Positions 1-13,845 of a DNA stretch of 13,845 bases are shown in pieces; position 1 is the stretch's first letter, and every line of letters starts with the position of its first letter. Origin of the DNA: Candidatus Asgardarchaeum abyssi (GTDB lineage: Archaea; Asgardarchaeota; Asgardarchaeia; Asgardarchaeales; Asgardarchaeaceae); contig JBECUL010000052.1 in the NCBI GenBank assembly GCA_040225955.1, forward strand, positions 1 to 13,845. Reading direction: 5' to 3'. The position numbers and the translations under genes were made by a program. A model generated the notes under the pieces. That model was not told the origin of the DNA. It saw nothing but the letters and a program-made list of their open reading frames with translations, and ran no database searches.

Positions 1-145
1 TCCGAAACGCATAAACACTCTTTAGTTGCGACTCTATAGCTTCAAGCAACTTACGTTTAACTTCGATAAATTCAGCACGCTGCTCCTTACTAGGGCTACA
101 TAATGCAAGCTCTCTTAAACTGCGGTACAGCTCCAGTAGAAACAA
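1..145 (-). CDS. 5' part of a hypothetical helical protein running off the left edge
   Basis: Manual translation from TTG at 145: (M)FLLELYRSLRELALCSPSKEQRAEFIEVKRKLLEAIESQLKSVYAFR..., 48 codons without a stop and amphipathic-helix-like composition. Not in the ORF track; start uncertain. Confidence 0.5.
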   Translation of the reverse strand, partial: MFLLELYRSLRELALCSPSKEQRAEFIEVKRKLLEAIESQLKSVYAFR

Positions 146-150
146 TGTGC

Positions 151-235
151 TGGAAAGTAGCGGGACGATGCTATAAACCTTGCGGTGATGCAGATGACTC
201 CCGCTACCTTTCCACTAACACTTTTTCAAGTGCCA
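151..235 (-). ncRNA. Candidate structured RNA or 5' leader (two hairpins)
   Basis: Arms TGGAAAGTAGCGGGA (151-165) and TCCCGCTACCTTTCCA (199-214) pair with one bulge. On the minus strand the apex is ACC-GCAA-GGT, and a second hairpin TGGCACTT-GAAA-AAGTGTTA (235-216) precedes it. Both loops are GNRA. Confidence 0.5.
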
Positions 236-1595: not shown

Positions 1596-1886
1596 TTAAC
1601 TAAGAGCTTCTACGGTTGGTGTTGTTGGTGTAACTACTTTGGGTGGTGGTTTTGACCTTTTCTTTATGAAACCAGTCGCGCCGGTTATTATACCTAATAT
1701 ACCAGTCATCATTAAAGCAAAGAGCGTATTGTACACAAATGCTCTAAGGCTTGGATCTAGAGTTTGGAATATTGGATAAGATCTTGCATAACCGAATCTA
1801 CTAATTTGTTCTTGGACTCATATGTACACTAGTCCACTTGATACTAAAATAAGTATTAACCCAGCGATGAGAAATTTCTTTCTCAT
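1596..1886 (-). pseudogene. Small two-TM membrane protein gene interrupted by an in-frame TGA (codon 23, 1818-1820)
   Basis: Manual translation: MRKKFLIAGLILILVSSGLVYI*VQEQISRFGYARSYPIFQTLDPSLRAFVYNTLFALMMTGILGIITGATGFIKKRSKPPPKVVTPTTPTVEALS-TAA. RBS GGGGTG 7 nt upstream of the ATG. Confidence 0.7.
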
Positions 1887-2183
1887 CTAGCAACACCCCG
1901 TGATTTTTCCACGGACTAATGTCTTATTTCTAAAATTTAGCAGAAGAAATGTAAACTAATTATAAATAAAATTAGTATATATGTCATATTAAATTAAGTA
2001 AGTAGAAAAGTATAAATTTTTATAGACAAATTGTCTGTATCCATTATTTTCTGCCTTTAGAAACTTTACTGATTTGGCTTAATAGCCTCATGCTTACACA
2101 TGAAAAATCCTCATTTATAAATTGTAAAACGTAGTTGTCATAATTATTTGTGAGAGTTATAGTATAAGTCGGTTCTATCTAAA

Positions 2184-3158
2184 TTAATAGTGAATTGTTC
2201 TTGTAAGGTGATGTGGCCTCATACTCTCTTTACCTTTAAGCCAGAGATACCCGTCTAGAATGACTTCCGTAATTTTGTCACTCCTATGTCTGTTAATTTC
2301 CTCGCATAAAAGATGAGCAGAATAAATGGTACACGCTCTAATTTCAACTTCCTCATCAGATCCCTCAGGTATCGGTATCCTATTATCAATTTTATACGCT
2401 AGCTTGTCAGAATACATTATAATCCCCAGATCTCTCAGTGCTTGGGGAAGTCTATAATCAGCAAAAACTGTTAACTTGCCAACATCTTCCAATTTAAACT
2501 GACAATTTGGATTATAATGCAGCATTGCAAAAAGCAACTGAGCTCTCTTATAGAACTTAACTACAGTACCCGTGGGTCTGTAAACTCTAACATCATTAAA
2601 AGATGGAAAATCTTTCACTAATCTTTCAACCAATCCTTTTCCCTCATCAAACGCCTTATTAGAAAGTTTCAGAAAATTTGAAAAGCTTCCTTCGTATTTC
2701 TCAAGCAGTACCTTTCCTATTTCTCTAAGTATTTTCACCCTTTCCTCAAACATCGGAATTATAATATTATCTCCCTTCAGAAATTTTAAAGCTCTCTCCT
2801 CAGTGAGCTTCGCTAAATATTTTGCGTCTAGAACTGGTATATCGTCCTCTAAAGCTTTTCTTAATGAATAAATAAGTCCAATAGCTCCACTATAAGTAGT
2901 TCCTCCATATTTTATCTCAAATCTCCGCCAAGGTTTTTTAAGCTCACAAAACTGAAAATTAATAGAATTAAATACAAATGTAAACTGAACTAAATCATCA
3001 CCCCTTAAATTCGGAAGGAAATCGTAATGTAACGGAGGAAACTTATAATCCTTTAACGTTGTAGCAACTTCTTTTATTTTCTCAAAATTAATCTTAACAT
3101 GTAATGTCTTCTCTATGATCGACCCTACACTTTCTAAAACAGGGTTTATATGCATCAT
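2184..3158 (-). CDS. Queuosine salvage family protein (DUF2419 / QNG1 / C9orf64-like nucleotide N-glycosylase/hydrolase)
   Basis: Family motifs NSINFQF, FPSFND, FYKRAQL, LTVFADYRLPQALR, EVEIRA, LDGYLW and C-terminal HHLTRTIHY. Confidence 0.92.
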   Translation of the reverse strand: MMHINPVLESVGSIIEKTLHVKINFEKIKEVATTLKDYKFPPLHYDFLPNLRGDDLVQFTFVFNSINFQFCELKKPWRRFEIKYGGTTYSGAIGLIYSLRKALEDDIPVLDAKYLAKLTEERALKFLKGDNIIIPMFEERVKILREIGKVLLEKYEGSFSNFLKLSNKAFDEGKGLVERLVKDFPSFNDVRVYRPTGTVVKFYKRAQLLFAMLHYNPNCQFKLEDVGKLTVFADYRLPQALRDLGIIMYSDKLAYKIDNRIPIPEGSDEEVEIRACTIYSAHLLCEEINRHRSDKITEVILDGYLWLKGKESMRPHHLTRTIHY

Positions 3159-3291
3159 TCGGATCCCTCTATTATCAAATGATTGCTACTTTTATAAATA
3201 AAAGTCTATTTCTATCTGCTTTTAGAGCAATTCACAATTACTGTTAATATGAGTAATATCAATATTGGTAAAAAGTCCTAGCATTCAGATG

Positions 3292-5964
3292 TTAATCGCT
3301 CATGGCTGTGTACTTAAAATACAATCTAGGAACTAATCGAGTAATTATAAAGATAGTAGCGCTTACAATGAGCCATACAAGAAAGAAGATTAAAGGAGTA
3401 GGTGTAATGATATGGCTTAGCACTTGTGATGTAAAATCAAATGCTAAACTCCCAGAGAGTAGTAGATTAATAAAGAGAAAGGCCCACTCATCCGAGCTCA
3501 TTTTTCTCCTTGATAAGAATTCGTCTAATTCGGATTTTTGGGTTTCAATATATTCGCTATTTTTGTCAACACGGAATATTTTGAATAATTTCTCGGCAAG
3601 CATAATTTCTTCTCTATTACGTAAAACACGGCTGGGCATGAGAAGGCTATAATACTGGATCCATTTGCGCTGTAACTTAACAAAATAATCAATATGTTGT
3701 ATTCTAGGAGATTCTTTAATTAGCTTATCCAGTTCGTAATATGCAACTAACACACTCTGTCTAGCAGCCATAATATAGCTGAAGAATAGAGTAAGATAAT
3801 TTATCTCTTTAGTATAATATATTACATAATTTGGATCTTTATGTAAAATCAGCGAATTAAAGTCCGTAAAGATTGCGAATTCAGAATAAGGCGAAATGTT
3901 CTCCAGATTACTTGAAATAAATCTGTGAGGGCCTCTAAATTTAGTAGTAATTATTCTTATTATCTTTTCTCGAATGTTATCGTTATTATAAAGATCCTCA
4001 ATAGACTTATATGATGCATCTCTTAGAAGATTTTCATTTATCGAAAAATGAAGAAGGGGATGATTAAGTCCAAAATGATATGTTGTTTCCTCTTTAGTAA
4101 GATTACATATCTCACGTATTCTCTCCAATAATCGTCTGGGTAAATCACTTAAATTTTTAGCACTACTTATATCGTTGTTTTCAGCAAGAAATAAGCGTCT
4201 AAAGCGTAACTCTGCCGATCTATCATTCTTATCATTTAAAGGATAAATTTTAACTTCTTTTACCTCAGATAATTTAGTCCACCATGTAAGAATATAACTT
4301 AGAGGGACTGTTCTAATAAGCTTTTCAAAATCAGAAAATCTATAAATTATACTAATGATACCATTTGAAAATATAATAAGAAACAAATCAAATTTGGTAG
4401 AAACTTGTTTAATTTTTGGATTTTTTGATGTAACCTTCATCTCGTAAGAATCTAAATAGACTAAGGAAATAAAATTTGTTTCCATCATTGACGGATTTAC
4501 CATCTCCTCTATATTTTCAAAAAGTTCATCAATAAACTCGAAAGCATTGATCTGTTTTAAACAATTCAGTCTTTGATCTATCTTTATTATTCTTTCCATA
4601 TCACGTTGTTGTTTCTCTTTTAAATGCGAGAAGGTACAATAGGCTATGGCACTTGCGACTCCTTCTTCTAGAAGCTTATTAGCTACGTAAGCAGGATTTA
4701 CAGATTGGCGAAGATTACGAGTGAATATCCAATCCAGCCATGGGGAAGAAAATATATTGGTAACATCATCATAAGGTTTCTCTTTAAGGAGAGCCTTTAT
4801 CTTTTGTACTTTTGGATCATCATCAAACTCTGACATTTTTTTACCATCTATTAAAAAGGTTGTATTCAAATAATCTTCAACGAAATCAGGACCCCATAAT
4901 TTAAAAGTAAAATCTAAAATTCTATCATTATATTCCTGGATTGGATAAAGCTTAACACCAAAACGCTCAGTGAGAGTGTATCTAATAACTTGAGTGGTCT
5001 CTTCTCTTACTATTCTATCAAGCACGCTACTAAGCAAAATAATTAATATTTGCTTAATATCAACGGAAGTACCGATGTTTAATTTCAATTTATCTTTCAG
5101 AATTTGCTGAAATTCGGCTTTAAATTGCTCACTATTATCAGTCATTAAATCCAGTTGAGTAATAATATCTTCCAACTCTTTAGTGGACGCATTGCCAACA
5201 TACGATAAGACGACCTTCTTAATATCTTGAAGCCCTTCAATTCTTTTATACTCGTTATAAATATTATTAATAATAAGTTGAGGATCCATCGTGGACGGAA
5301 ACATAATAGCTCTGCCTATGGAAATTATTTTTTCTACAAGATTTATTGAGTATCCAGTACGAGGAGCTTCCGCAAATACGAGTATTTCTTCAGGCATTAT
5401 ACTTCTAATAGCTTCTACTACTTTTTCAGAATCAACATTCTCCAGTTTTTGCCGAATATGCGAATAATCATCTGTTTTTTCAAATGTTAAATTTATTATG
5501 TCTTCTATATTACTTCTCATCTCTGGGTAATAGAATATCGCTTGAGCCAAAAAATCCCGGTTATATTTGTCATATATAAATAACAAGTCTTCACGTTTTA
5601 TTTTACACAAATCATAACCATGTTCCCTTTCTTTCAGAAATTCTAATTGTTCATCGGATATGTTATAACCAATCACAGCGTTGAAATACTCAGCACCTTT
5701 TATGGGGGTAGTACTTAGTTCTAACGTAAGTACAGCCCTTTGGTTTGTTTCTATTTGCTTTTTCGTTAAAGATCTTTTAGTCCTCGGGTGAGAAAAAACG
5801 CGTTTTGCATAATATTTTATTTCCTGTCCGTTTTTTTCAAGGAAAATAATATTTCTGATTCTTATAGGAATAAAAATTACTTGGTTCTTACTTTTGGCTT
5901 GGCTCAATGTTCGTTCGAAAGATGATACATTCATAAGTGAACCATAACCACAAACAGCGATCAT
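3292..5964 (-). CDS. 890-aa fusion: gamma-glutamylcyclotransferase (GGCT/ChaC)-like domain with helical insertions plus CorA-like domain with 2 C-terminal TM helices
   Basis: N-terminal GYGSLMN, FNAV, LKEREHGY; distal YPIQEY...WGPDFVEDYLNTTFLIDG. C-half has LFLIIFSNGIISIIYRF, long helices and two terminal hydrophobic segments (WAFLFINLLLSGSLAF; LIFFLVWLIVSATIFIIT). Confidence 0.7.
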   Translation of the reverse strand: MIAVCGYGSLMNVSSFERTLSQAKSKNQVIFIPIRIRNIIFLEKNGQEIKYYAKRVFSHPRTKRSLTKKQIETNQRAVLTLELSTTPIKGAEYFNAVIGYNISDEQLEFLKEREHGYDLCKIKREDLLFIYDKYNRDFLAQAIFYYPEMRSNIEDIINLTFEKTDDYSHIRQKLENVDSEKVVEAIRSIMPEEILVFAEAPRTGYSINLVEKIISIGRAIMFPSTMDPQLIINNIYNEYKRIEGLQDIKKVVLSYVGNASTKELEDIITQLDLMTDNSEQFKAEFQQILKDKLKLNIGTSVDIKQILIILLSSVLDRIVREETTQVIRYTLTERFGVKLYPIQEYNDRILDFTFKLWGPDFVEDYLNTTFLIDGKKMSEFDDDPKVQKIKALLKEKPYDDVTNIFSSPWLDWIFTRNLRQSVNPAYVANKLLEEGVASAIAYCTFSHLKEKQQRDMERIIKIDQRLNCLKQINAFEFIDELFENIEEMVNPSMMETNFISLVYLDSYEMKVTSKNPKIKQVSTKFDLFLIIFSNGIISIIYRFSDFEKLIRTVPLSYILTWWTKLSEVKEVKIYPLNDKNDRSAELRFRRLFLAENNDISSAKNLSDLPRRLLERIREICNLTKEETTYHFGLNHPLLHFSINENLLRDASYKSIEDLYNNDNIREKIIRIITTKFRGPHRFISSNLENISPYSEFAIFTDFNSLILHKDPNYVIYYTKEINYLTLFFSYIMAARQSVLVAYYELDKLIKESPRIQHIDYFVKLQRKWIQYYSLLMPSRVLRNREEIMLAEKLFKIFRVDKNSEYIETQKSELDEFLSRRKMSSDEWAFLFINLLLSGSLAFDFTSQVLSHIITPTPLIFFLVWLIVSATIFIITRLVPRLYFKYTAMSD

Positions 5965-5972
5965 TTTAATCT

Positions 5973-6016
5973 CTACCTACGTTTTAAAGTTAATTTCACT
6001 CTAATTTATAAATTTA
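5973..6016 (-). promoter_or_regulatory. TATA-like box and RBS-like motif upstream of the 890-aa gene
   Basis: Minus strand ATAAATTTATAAAT (TTTATAAA at 6005-6012) and AGGTAG shortly before the ATG. Confidence 0.4.
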
Positions 6017-6060
6017 TCTAGGTTTATGTTTTTCAATAACTGCTAGTATGTAATTTGCGG

Positions 6061-6196
6061 CTAGGAATTCAAATGAGAGGTAGAAGAGATAATTAAAAAT
6101 TATGAAGTCTGATATAGAAGATGTTACAAAAAGAATCCAATGGATAGAATTACTGCAGAAGAGCTAATAAAGCAACTTCAAGCATTGGATCTATGA
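6061..6196 (+). pseudogene. Decayed C-terminal remnant of a Ser/Thr protein kinase
   Basis: ...KL*SLI / frameshift / RRCYKKNPMDRITAEELIKQLQALDL-TGA resembles kinase subdomain XI (LIxxCxxxxPxxRxTAxEL). Confidence 0.55.
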
Positions 6197-6272
6197 GCTG
6201 GCCGTTTAATCTTGGAAAATAGAATAATATTCCATTTTTTATTTAATTCGTTAGAGTGAAATATTGGTTAAC

Positions 6273-7550
6273 TTAAACATTACCAGAAAAGATTTTATTT
6301 CTCAGTTCTACAAATAGCTTTTTCCCCTTATCGGTTATCACTATCCAGCCTCTAGGGAAACCTTTTGTGCTCTCAATTTCAAAATCTATGATTCCTTGAT
6401 CTTTTAGATGGCCGAAAAAGTTAGTCAACCATGCTGCTAATGAAACATCACCCATCCTATACCCCAATTCTTCAGCAGGTATCTTAAAAACTCCTTGGGA
6501 GATTTTTTCGCTTAGGATTCTGATAGCAGAGTACTGTGGGTTACTTTTCATTAACTCGTCAAGAATATGTATTTGCATTATTAGTTTGTCATATTCTGTT
6601 GCTTTTCTGATGTAAATTGCGGCTTCTCTTTCCATCATTTGTTTTTCTTTTTGTAATTTCAGTAAGACATCACGCACGTTTTCTAGTTCCGTAACTATCT
6701 TTTTATTTTTCTCCTTTAACTCCTTTAGTTTATTTTCAAGTTCGGCATTTCTATTCCGCAATTCCAGAATTATAGTGTTAAGCTCTTCAATTTTATTGCT
6801 GAGAGATATATTCTTCTTGACCTCTAGGGTATATTCCGCTTTAAGCAAATTAATCGCTTTTTCAAGTTCTTCCTTTTCATGATCAATTACTTTCTCTTGA
6901 GGACCAAGTCTTTCAATCTCCGATTTGTACTTCATTAAGCTTGCCATGAGTTGCTTAATTTTTTCGTCTCTTTTCCTAATTTCACTTTCCAAATCTTTGA
7001 TTTTTTCTTTATTCACTTTCTGGGATTTTGCCATCTCCTCCAATTTTTTCATTAGTTGCTGATTTGCCTCTTTAAGTTCTAAATTCTCCTTTGTCACGGT
7101 TTCTAATTGTTTTTTAACTTGCTGCAACAGCATTTGGATTTCATTTCCGTACTGCGTTTTTACAATTTCATCTGTTATAATAGGTGCTTTTTGTTCAAGA
7201 GTGACCTTTTTATGGGATTCCAGAGCAGAAGATATCATTCCAGTTAAAAAATCAACGACCTTCGCAAACTCCTTTTGTTGGATGATTGCCTGATTTAAGC
7301 TTTCATAGATTCTTGATTTTGCAGCAGTTGTTTCTTGTTGGATTTTATACTCCAAGACTTCGAAATCCTCTTTTACTAAGGTGTCGATGGCAAATGATTT
7401 CATTTTTTCGTTAAGTTCCTCCAGAGCATCTATAATTCTCTTTACGAACTGTGTGAGCTCCCTATTTATATGAATTATAACTCTGTTAACAAAGGACTCT
7501 AAAAATGCATCCTGGAGAATGCTAGCGGTACTTTCAGATATTTTATTCAT
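6273..7550 (-). CDS. Long coiled-coil protein with C-terminal winged-helix domain
   Basis: E/K/L heptad-rich about aa 135-335; tail HLKDQGIIDF...WIVITDKGKKLF is a wHTH wing/helix signature. No Walker motifs. Confidence 0.8.
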   Translation of the reverse strand: MNKISESTASILQDAFLESFVNRVIIHINRELTQFVKRIIDALEELNEKMKSFAIDTLVKEDFEVLEYKIQQETTAAKSRIYESLNQAIIQQKEFAKVVDFLTGMISSALESHKKVTLEQKAPIITDEIVKTQYGNEIQMLLQQVKKQLETVTKENLELKEANQQLMKKLEEMAKSQKVNKEKIKDLESEIRKRDEKIKQLMASLMKYKSEIERLGPQEKVIDHEKEELEKAINLLKAEYTLEVKKNISLSNKIEELNTIILELRNRNAELENKLKELKEKNKKIVTELENVRDVLLKLQKEKQMMEREAAIYIRKATEYDKLIMQIHILDELMKSNPQYSAIRILSEKISQGVFKIPAEELGYRMGDVSLAAWLTNFFGHLKDQGIIDFEIESTKGFPRGWIVITDKGKKLFVELRNKIFSGNV

Positions 7551-13567: not shown

Positions 13568-13845
13568 TTAAACATATTTTTCGGCAACAACACGCATGGT
13601 AAATGATCTTTTGACTTTGTCTTCGTTATTATCAAGCTCTGGCAAAGAATAAATACCTAAAACATTATATCCGTTTTCTTTCAAAATTCTTCTAATATCG
13701 TCCAAGGTATAGGTTCTAATGATATGATTTTCTGTAAATCTATCAATCAAATAATTATTTTCTATTACTGCTTTGTTGATTAAAACAATGTTATATGAAA
13801 TAGCCGACGAAAAGATTTTTTTCATCATACGTATTATTTACCGAT
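13568..13845 (-). pseudogene. 3' end of a class I SAM-dependent methyltransferase, apparently frameshifted
   Basis: Tail ENHIIRTYTLDDIRRILKENGYNVLGIY...MRVVAEK is typical. An in-frame TAA lies just upstream of 13828, while another frame (SVNNTYDEKNLF) is open to the window edge. Confidence 0.6.

Follow-up and report, generated by a model that had tools for sequence, protein, structure and literature searches.

An intact but divergent Qng1-family gene in an Asgard archaeon, whose product probably releases a base other than queuine

What is a gene of the queuosine-salvage family doing in an archaeon? The question is raised by a stretch of 13,845 nucleotides from Candidatus Asgardarchaeum abyssi (the window), contig C52 of the metagenome-assembled genome (MAG) G000, which encodes a protein, P0001, of the Qng1 family. 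The characterised enzymes of this family (PF10343), Qng1 of Sphaerobacter thermophilus (StQng1; structures 7UK3, 7U07 and 7U91) and human QNG1, also called C9orf64 (7UGK), are queuosine-5'-monophosphate N-glycosylases, or hydrolases. An earlier note on this DNA had described an intact Qng1/DUF2419 gene in an archaeal-looking genome; it proposed either a salvage of archaeosine or preQ0 or an archaeon using queuosine (Q), possibly related to the origin of eukaryotic QNG1. Our reading, to which alignments and a structural model lead us to give a probability of about 0.4, is that P0001 is a horizontally acquired nucleoside-5'-monophosphate N-glycosidase for a guanine-type base other than queuine, archaeosine and preQ0 nucleotides being its likeliest substrates.

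2184-3158, reverse strand: Qng1-family coding sequence (P0001), from the open reading frame and its translation, the PF10343 match, the AlphaFold2 model and the ratio of non-synonymous to synonymous change (dN/dS).

The reading frame is intact, from its ATG through 324 amino acids to the stop codon. Its product matches PF10343 (Q_salvage, DUF2419 in Pfam) over profile positions 7-285 of 285 with 231.7 bits and an E value of 1.7e-68—the curated cut-off is 25 bits—and its matches among solved structures are limited to Qng1 entries (E 5e-47 for StQng1, 2e-42 for human QNG1); both kinds of match are far above chance. The AlphaFold2 model, built with 70 homologues as input, has a pLDDT of 96.5 and superposes on 7UK3 with a TM-score of 0.89 (rmsd 2.0 Å, 34% identity) and on the human structure 7UGK with 0.86 (32% identity), the next structural matches being DNA glycosylases with TM-scores of just 0.3-0.4. 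Qng1 and the helix-hairpin-helix (HhH) DNA glycosylases such as Ogg1, AGOG and EndoIII have in common the Lys/Asp chemistry and a two-lobe core (PMC9881137). The model of P0001 presents this two-lobe fold, but with the DNA cleft closed by insertions and by a C-terminal plug, both retained in P0001; it also presents the Qng1-specific beta-hairpins (E81-90 and E190-201), with which a mononucleotide substrate fits better than DNA. The description of an intact family gene is thus borne out by the full-length reading frame, the profile match and the fold: P0001 belongs to the broad Qng1/QNG1 family, as a divergent variant of the known enzymes.

Which parts of the active site are kept? The residues were mapped by HMMER alignment to StQng1 (7U07), and the conserved elements are the following.

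2538-2555, reverse strand: FYKRAQ, residues 202-207; K204 is the HhH lysine (StQng1 K199), by alignment to 7U07.
2451-2465, reverse strand: FADYR, residues 232-236; D234 is the catalytic aspartate (StQng1 D231), by alignment.
2241-2258, reverse strand: LDGYLW, residues 301-306; D302 (StQng1 D298) and W306 (W302) form the guanine face, by alignment.
2187-2204, reverse strand: C-terminal TRTIHY; Y324 corresponds to StQng1 Y323.

K204, D234 and Y324 are invariant among the 70 homologues. The guanine face is completed by the aliphatic L208, directly after FYKRAQ, which matches the StQng1 residue stacking on the base (I203). The protein ends exactly at its tyrosine, the stop codon coming next; in StQng1, from which the residue roles are taken, the carboxylate of that terminal tyrosine helps to form the active site (PMC9881137). 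Qng1 loses its activity when tagged at the C-terminus. The ribose contacts are kept as well, with F70 (StQng1 F75), Y235 (the ribose/phosphate tyrosine Y232) and the terminal carboxylate of Y324, together with N67 (N72); for the 5'-phosphate site, R79, R236 and K310 stand for StQng1 R80, K233 and Q306, K310 being a conservative change. The three motifs named by the earlier note, FYKRAQ, FADY and LDGYLW, are therefore found. Its wider statement that all recognisable family motifs are present holds for these catalytic elements and for the C-terminal tyrosine; it does not extend to the queuine pocket nor to the proton-relay residues, which are replaced. As far as the alignment tells, the general catalytic chemistry of P0001 is intact and its queuine-specific part is not.

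Could P0001 nonetheless be a canonical Qng1, converting Q-5'-monophosphate to queuine despite its substitutions, as it would have done in the lineage from which it came? The full-length match to PF10343 and the complete general catalytic set favour this possibility; the queuine-specific residues run against it.

2946-2969, reverse strand: NSINFQFC, residues 64-71; N64 in place of relay D69 and C71 in place of W76, by alignment.
2880-2888, reverse strand: G91-A92-I93, where the queuine side-chain pocket has G-Y93-W94, by alignment.
2523-2525, reverse strand: M212 in place of the relay aspartate D207, by alignment.
3012-3038, reverse strand: PPLHYDFLP, residues 41-49; H44 in place of W48 and P49 in place of H53 at the pocket rim, the N-terminal alignment being less certain.

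The aromatic pocket that receives the cyclopentenediol in StQng1 (W48, Y93, W94, W299 and H53) reads H44, A92, I93, G303 and P49 in P0001, and the D69-N72-D207 relay to the side-chain amine reads N64, N67 and M212, so that both aspartates are gone. The triplet G91-A92-I93 does not vary within the cluster at 90% identity or above, and the position of W299 is polymorphic, G303 in P0001 and E303 in close alleles. The human enzyme, only 39% identical to the bacterial one, nevertheless retains D, W, Y, W, D and Y at StQng1 positions D69, W76, Y93, W94, D207 and W299 (it reads D...N..FW at the positions matching residues 64-71 of P0001). The six side-chain and relay residues common to both characterised enzymes are thus all replaced in P0001, and the StQng1 mutants D69A and D207A were compromised in complementation (PMC9881137). 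With the queuine pocket and the Asp-Asp relay replaced, the base released by P0001 is probably not queuine.

This departure is widespread in the family. Among 100 members, the canonical D/W/Y/W/D/W signature occurs in a small Chloroflexota clade alone (L084, L102 and partly L117). P0001 belongs to the same signature class as the N64/M212-type proteins of DPANN archaea (Aenigmatarchaeota, Woesearchaeota, Pacearchaeota), Auribacterota, Chlamydiota and Anaerolineae, which are annotated as "queuosine salvage family protein". Within this class its closest relatives, the near clade, carry R71, F92 and F93 with a conserved Glu303; the window lineage alone has C71, A92 and I93, and it has an Asgard host bearing an archaeal-type tRNA-guanine transglycosylase (arcTGT), whereas the near-clade hosts were found without any TGT.

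The genome of the host (2.64 Mb in 189 contigs, 93.5% complete, 7.8% contamination, 34% GC) tells more on the possible product. The single match of G000 to the TGT-fold profile PF01702 is an arcTGT, TgtA, with 571 bits to TIGR00432 (cut-off 350); to the Q_tRNA_tgt model it scores 132 bits, below the cut-off of 307. The host thus has no match for a TGT of the bacterial or eukaryotic type, those accepting queuine or preQ1, and queuine is not a known substrate of arcTGT. As the sole TGT is TgtA, a use of Q34 by the host was excluded, and the suggestion that the gene marks an archaeon using Q has to be abandoned, the queuine pocket not being conserved either. P0001 therefore shares with the Sphaerobacter and human enzymes the fold, the HhH Lys/Asp pair, the guanine-face Asp and Trp, the ribose Phe and Tyr, the phosphate site, the hairpins and the C-terminal Tyr, but departs from the characterised queuosine-nucleotide hydrolase in three features that define it, namely pocket, relay and partner TGT. 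We saw no queA/queG-type context in this arcTGT-only host. On the other hand, a search of 46 bacterial hosts found a bacterial TGT in 39, and as these hosts include several pocket classes, N64/M212 among them, a role in Q salvage is conceivable there for this class; a bacterial-type TGT also occurs in some DPANN that have homologues (PMC8204110 for DPANN). On balance we consider a canonical queuine-releasing function of P0001 unlikely.

If not queuine, which base? The G000 genes around archaeosine give a direction, with one additional feature.

Contig C11, about 29551-30966 (L006:649-2064): RaSEA-DUF5591 fusion, 472 amino acids.

This protein is made of an ArcS-type DUF5591 and of a radical-SAM half resembling RaSEA (TIGR01210, positions 7-180 of 313), and has thirteen cluster members at 90% identity; a canonical ArcS with a TGT-like N-terminus was not found in G000. 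The fusion points to archaeosine formation in the host. The survey proposed in the earlier note for TGT, ArcS and QueCDE thus yielded the arcTGT and the RaSEA-ArcS-like fusion, and little on the synthesis of preQ0: in G000, QueC gave just 22-bit PP-loop noise, PTPS/QueD was not found, and the QueE-like matches are weak radical-SAM ones only. The host, in this 93.5% complete MAG, looks like an archaeosine user unable to make preQ0, and since arcTGT and the RaSEA-ArcS-like protein are present with no preQ0 synthesis genes found, a freed base could re-enter tRNA.

A mechanism can be proposed on this basis. P0001 would enclose a single nucleoside 5'-monophosphate, as Qng1 does. The ribose would be held by K204, Y235, F70 and the terminal Y324 through its carboxylate, the phosphate by R79, R236 and K310, and the base, on its 2-amino-6-oxo side, by D302, W306 and L208. 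D234 would then cut the N-glycosidic bond, giving the free base and ribose 5-phosphate. The likeliest substrates would be the 7-deazaguanine nucleotides occurring where archaea live, archaeosine-5'-monophosphate or preQ0-5'-monophosphate, coming from tRNA turnover or from scavenged RNA, and the freed base might go back into tRNA, directly for preQ0 or, for the archaeosine (G+) base, after spontaneous deamidation—a last step which the data do not require. Free G+ base is reported to deamidate to preQ0, and archaea to salvage preQ0 (PMC5699537); besides, the transporter encoded beside an acidobacterial qng1 carries preQ0 and preQ1, not Q (PMC11130926). QueK, of the nucleoside hydrolase family, and QueL likewise release or rework 7-deazaguanine bases for TGT (PMC11130926), but their folds are unrelated to that of P0001 and their substrates are the nucleoside or the free base instead of the 5'-nucleotide. 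A positively charged 7-substituent, for instance the G+ formamidinium, would be well accommodated in the near clade by Glu303 together with F92/F93. Of the two routes put forward by the earlier note, the archaeosine/preQ0 salvage is thus a sensible one for a host with arcTGT only and in which QueC and QueD were not found; Q use is the part that did not stand. One may go further and regard the near clade as a whole, P0001 included, as archaeosine (or preQ0) nucleotide N-glycosidases closing a recycling loop not described before, in which G+-5'-monophosphate would give the G+ base, this base would deamidate spontaneously to preQ0, and arcTGT would insert the latter; we find this extension rather doubtful.

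Several observations weigh against an archaeosine/preQ0 role. No conserved neighbour ties the P0001 gene to deazaguanine metabolism, and no YhhQ transporter was found in G000. About two thirds of the sampled Asgard genomes have arcTGT and lack QueC, yet have no P0001-like gene; across genomes, the gene does not co-occur with arcTGT together with the absence of QueC. A family profile search found no TGT at all in the near-clade hosts G401 and G402 and also in G414, and among the 151 Aenigmatarchaeota sampled a TGT is present in just 26; since its hosts are TGT-less, the ancestral role of the near clade cannot be the feeding of a TGT. F92, F93 and R71 of the near clade are lost in P0001 and position 303 is G/E polymorphic, so that its pocket is unlike even that of its nearest kin. 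Finally the MAG is 93.5% complete, and gene absences are not proof.

These observations open the way to another explanation: P0001 could be a TGT-independent scavenging or house-cleaning hydrolase acting on other guanine-type nucleoside 5'-monophosphates from degraded RNA, e.g. m7GMP (GMP, guanosine monophosphate), methylated GMPs, wyosine-type nucleotides or GMP itself, which would provide ribose 5-phosphate and clear non-canonical nucleotides, a role that its TGT-less DPANN relatives would share. Fifteen of the 21 archaeal genomes with a PF10343 homologue lack TGT, all near-clade hosts among them, and Aenigmatarchaeota are mostly TGT-less; DPANN archaea are thought to subsist on scavenged nucleotides (PMC8204110). 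The aromatic pair and the Glu of the near clade might equally suit the cationic m7G. There are also loose links with base and nucleoside metabolism, a nucleoside phosphorylase in the window and an adenine deaminase adjacent in L016; but neighbours are not conserved, the phosphorylase segment being gone on contig L038 and the neighbours differing on L126, the corresponding locus of a close strain. Moreover the characterised family members are all specific for 7-deazaguanines, and an unregulated GMP hydrolase would deplete the nucleotide pool. We regard this scavenging role as somewhat less probable than the archaeosine/preQ0 one.

The need that an archaeosine/preQ0 salvage would serve extends beyond this host. 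We found arcTGT in 59 of 61 sampled Asgard genomes including G000 (58 of its 60 relatives, G001-G060), and QueC in only 21 of the 60 relatives; most sampled Asgard lineages thus appear to depend on external preQ0.

Where does the gene come from? Among 400 Asgard genomes G000 alone has a strong PF10343 match, the others reaching at most 65 bits. The closest relatives of P0001, those of the near clade, are 56-70% identical and metagenomic, and its named members are Aenigmatarchaeota MAGs; one of these copies lies among genes for ribosomal protein, eIF-6, SRP54 and Pus10, neighbours which indicate that it is truly archaeal. In a quick maximum-likelihood tree, free of eukaryotes, P0001 and two alleles group with P0003 (SH-aLRT 97) inside the 17-member near clade (support 100), itself sister to a mixed group of Chloroflexota, candidate phyla radiation (CPR) and Auribacterota. 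Homologues are rare in Aenigmatarchaeota (3 of 151 genomes), and P0001 is 60% identical to the Aenigmatarchaeota copy, compared with 35-57% for housekeeping genes of the same contig. The lone Asgard match, the position in the tree and this excess of identity point to a horizontal transfer into this Asgard lineage. A vertical Asgard origin, or a link with eukaryotic QNG1, was rejected on the same grounds, one strong match in 400 genomes and a grouping with Aenigmatarchaeota-type sequences. The eukaryotic enzyme was compared through the alignment to the human structure only, in which P0001 does not resemble the human enzyme more than the bacterial one; being a lone transfer without the human/Sphaerobacter signature, the gene gives no ground for the supposed relation to the origin of QNG1. 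The earlier note had named, as the finding that would speak against it, a lone recent transfer with no TGT able to use the product: the transfer is a lone one, but an arcTGT able to use a preQ0-type product is present.

Other Qng1-like genes were met during this survey. A bacterial-type TGT (430-455 bits, 370-412 amino acids) is present in the archaeal PF10343 hosts G405, G409, G412, G416, G413 and G415, mostly DPANN, which carry the homologues L043, L047, L067, L092, L069 and L090, and two 4.4-Mb archaea among the PF10343 hosts encode both TGT types. Bacterial-type queuosine genes have been published for DPANN and some Methanosarcinales (PMC8204110); we found no publication pairing the bacterial TGT of DPANN with Qng1-like genes, and no paper on archaeal Qng1-like proteins. 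A divergent Asgard family (L023:1030-2055, L012:1198-2235, L010:1237-2259 and L014:949-1974; 340-360 amino acids, 25-37 bits to PF10343) keeps the Lys, the Asp, the D..W and the C-terminal Tyr, bears a Cys-rich insertion before the C-terminus and has weak AGOG/DUF2400 matches; it is present in 17 of the 19 genomes of one Asgard family without QueC. The Asgard genome G040 has a 307-residue Qng1-like gene (L128:2761-3684, 65 bits) adjoining an SNF2-family helicase gene, with a DNA N6/N4 methyltransferase gene further downstream, and a second TGT-like gene, short and divergent (L127:562-1617, 352 amino acids), with weak DpdA/TgtA matches, is carried by this genome and by others of its family; this locus might be a DNA-modification or defence context.

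A last possibility is that the gene is a passenger without role, on a contig mis-binned from another archaeon or as a recently transferred copy that drifts. The contamination of the MAG (7.8%) leaves some room for this, as does a 99% identical copy of window positions 2160-6380 on a 6.9-kb contig (L038, QMUP01000048.1) assigned to the MAG "Candidatus Wolframiiraptor sp. B99-G9". However, the tetranucleotide profile of C52 is central in G000 (rank 41 of 117), the 890-residue protein encoded next to P0001 has full-length homologues in two other Asgard genomes (35-39% identity), and the 90%-identity cluster mates of proteins from both C52 and C33 are labelled "Candidatus Odinarchaeota archaeon" by NCBI. 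As for L038, its remainder consists of repeats occurring on nine G000 contigs and, in the regions tested, no further G000-like DNA was found in the "Wolframiiraptor" MAG; it is likely a stray contig of the same population, mis-binned in the public genome. The taxonomy of the contig thus bears out the archaeal look of the genome: it comes from an Asgard MAG and is not bacterial. The 60 genomes nearest to G000 are all related at the phylum level only, which makes G000 a deep and solitary lineage. Both ends of the window (1-235 and 13753-13845) are repeats 88-100% identical on other G000 contigs (C70, C75, C6, C20, C49, C73, C21; C57, C10, C22), probably mobile-element ends that broke the assembly.

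The locus is unstable—end repeats, a 3.1-kb indel, a decayed downstream gene—and residue 303 is polymorphic, as a drifting copy would have it; but the gene differs from the L126 allele by 34.5 synonymous and 23.5 non-synonymous changes (dN/dS 0.16), and is thus under purifying selection. The 90% cluster of P0001 counts 12 sequences from several sources, and at least 8 full-length variants, which come from several independent assemblies, have kept an uninterrupted frame. We consider a passenger very improbable.

The surroundings of the gene show this instability in detail.

3190-3203, reverse strand: TATA-box-like TTTTATTTATAAAA, about 38 nt upstream of the ATG, read from the sequence.

With a GAGGG 7-11 nt upstream of the ATG, this element suggests that the gene has its own putative promoter. 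Upstream, the 890-residue reading frame (3292-5964) lies within the indel segment (3196-6268, 3.1 kb) absent from L126, where a gene for a 425-residue coiled-coil protein directly precedes the Qng1-like gene; the 890-residue protein has no Pfam or NCBIfam match, and its sequence suggests two membrane helices at the C-terminus. Downstream, positions 1614-1886 (reverse strand) are the remnant of a 177-residue membrane-protein gene intact at L126:9186-9719, with an in-frame stop and residues 68-139 missing, a decay which explains the "empty" 850-bp gap and the 46-residue reading frame downstream of the Qng1-like gene. The nucleoside phosphorylase comes 850 bp downstream of P0001, in the segment absent on L038. 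An operon with the 890-residue gene, the small membrane reading frame and the phosphorylase is therefore not supported, in view of the indel, the remnant, the missing segment and the gene's own TATA-like element. The Qng1-like region (window 1698-3195 against L126:7889-9374) is 89.6% identical and its flanks 94-97%, which suggests recombination or a faster turnover. Across 81 loci no recurrent neighbour was found for the archaeal clades; with such unstable surroundings, the gene works alone rather than in a conserved cluster.

The gene of P0001 is real, intact, selected and lodged in a real Asgard genome, and it offers no argument for Q in archaea. This guards against a "queuosine salvage" misannotation and against a mistaken account of its evolution, since the gene came to Asgard archaea by an isolated transfer and is not an ancestor of the eukaryotic one. 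The characterised form of Qng1 is the queuine-specific one only; P0001 comes from a large unstudied part of the family that retains the chemistry but with another base pocket, many archaeal members of which sit in TGT-less or arcTGT-only genomes. The identity of its substrate would show whether archaea recycle archaeosine or preQ0 nucleotides, a question sharpened by the state, arcTGT without QueC, of about two thirds of the sampled Asgard genomes. Were the recycling loop true of the near clade, preQ0-auxotrophic archaea such as this Asgard lineage would keep archaeosine in their tRNA by means of it, and in DPANN without a TGT the enzyme would serve to remove ribose 5-phosphate from archaeosine nucleotides of their hosts.

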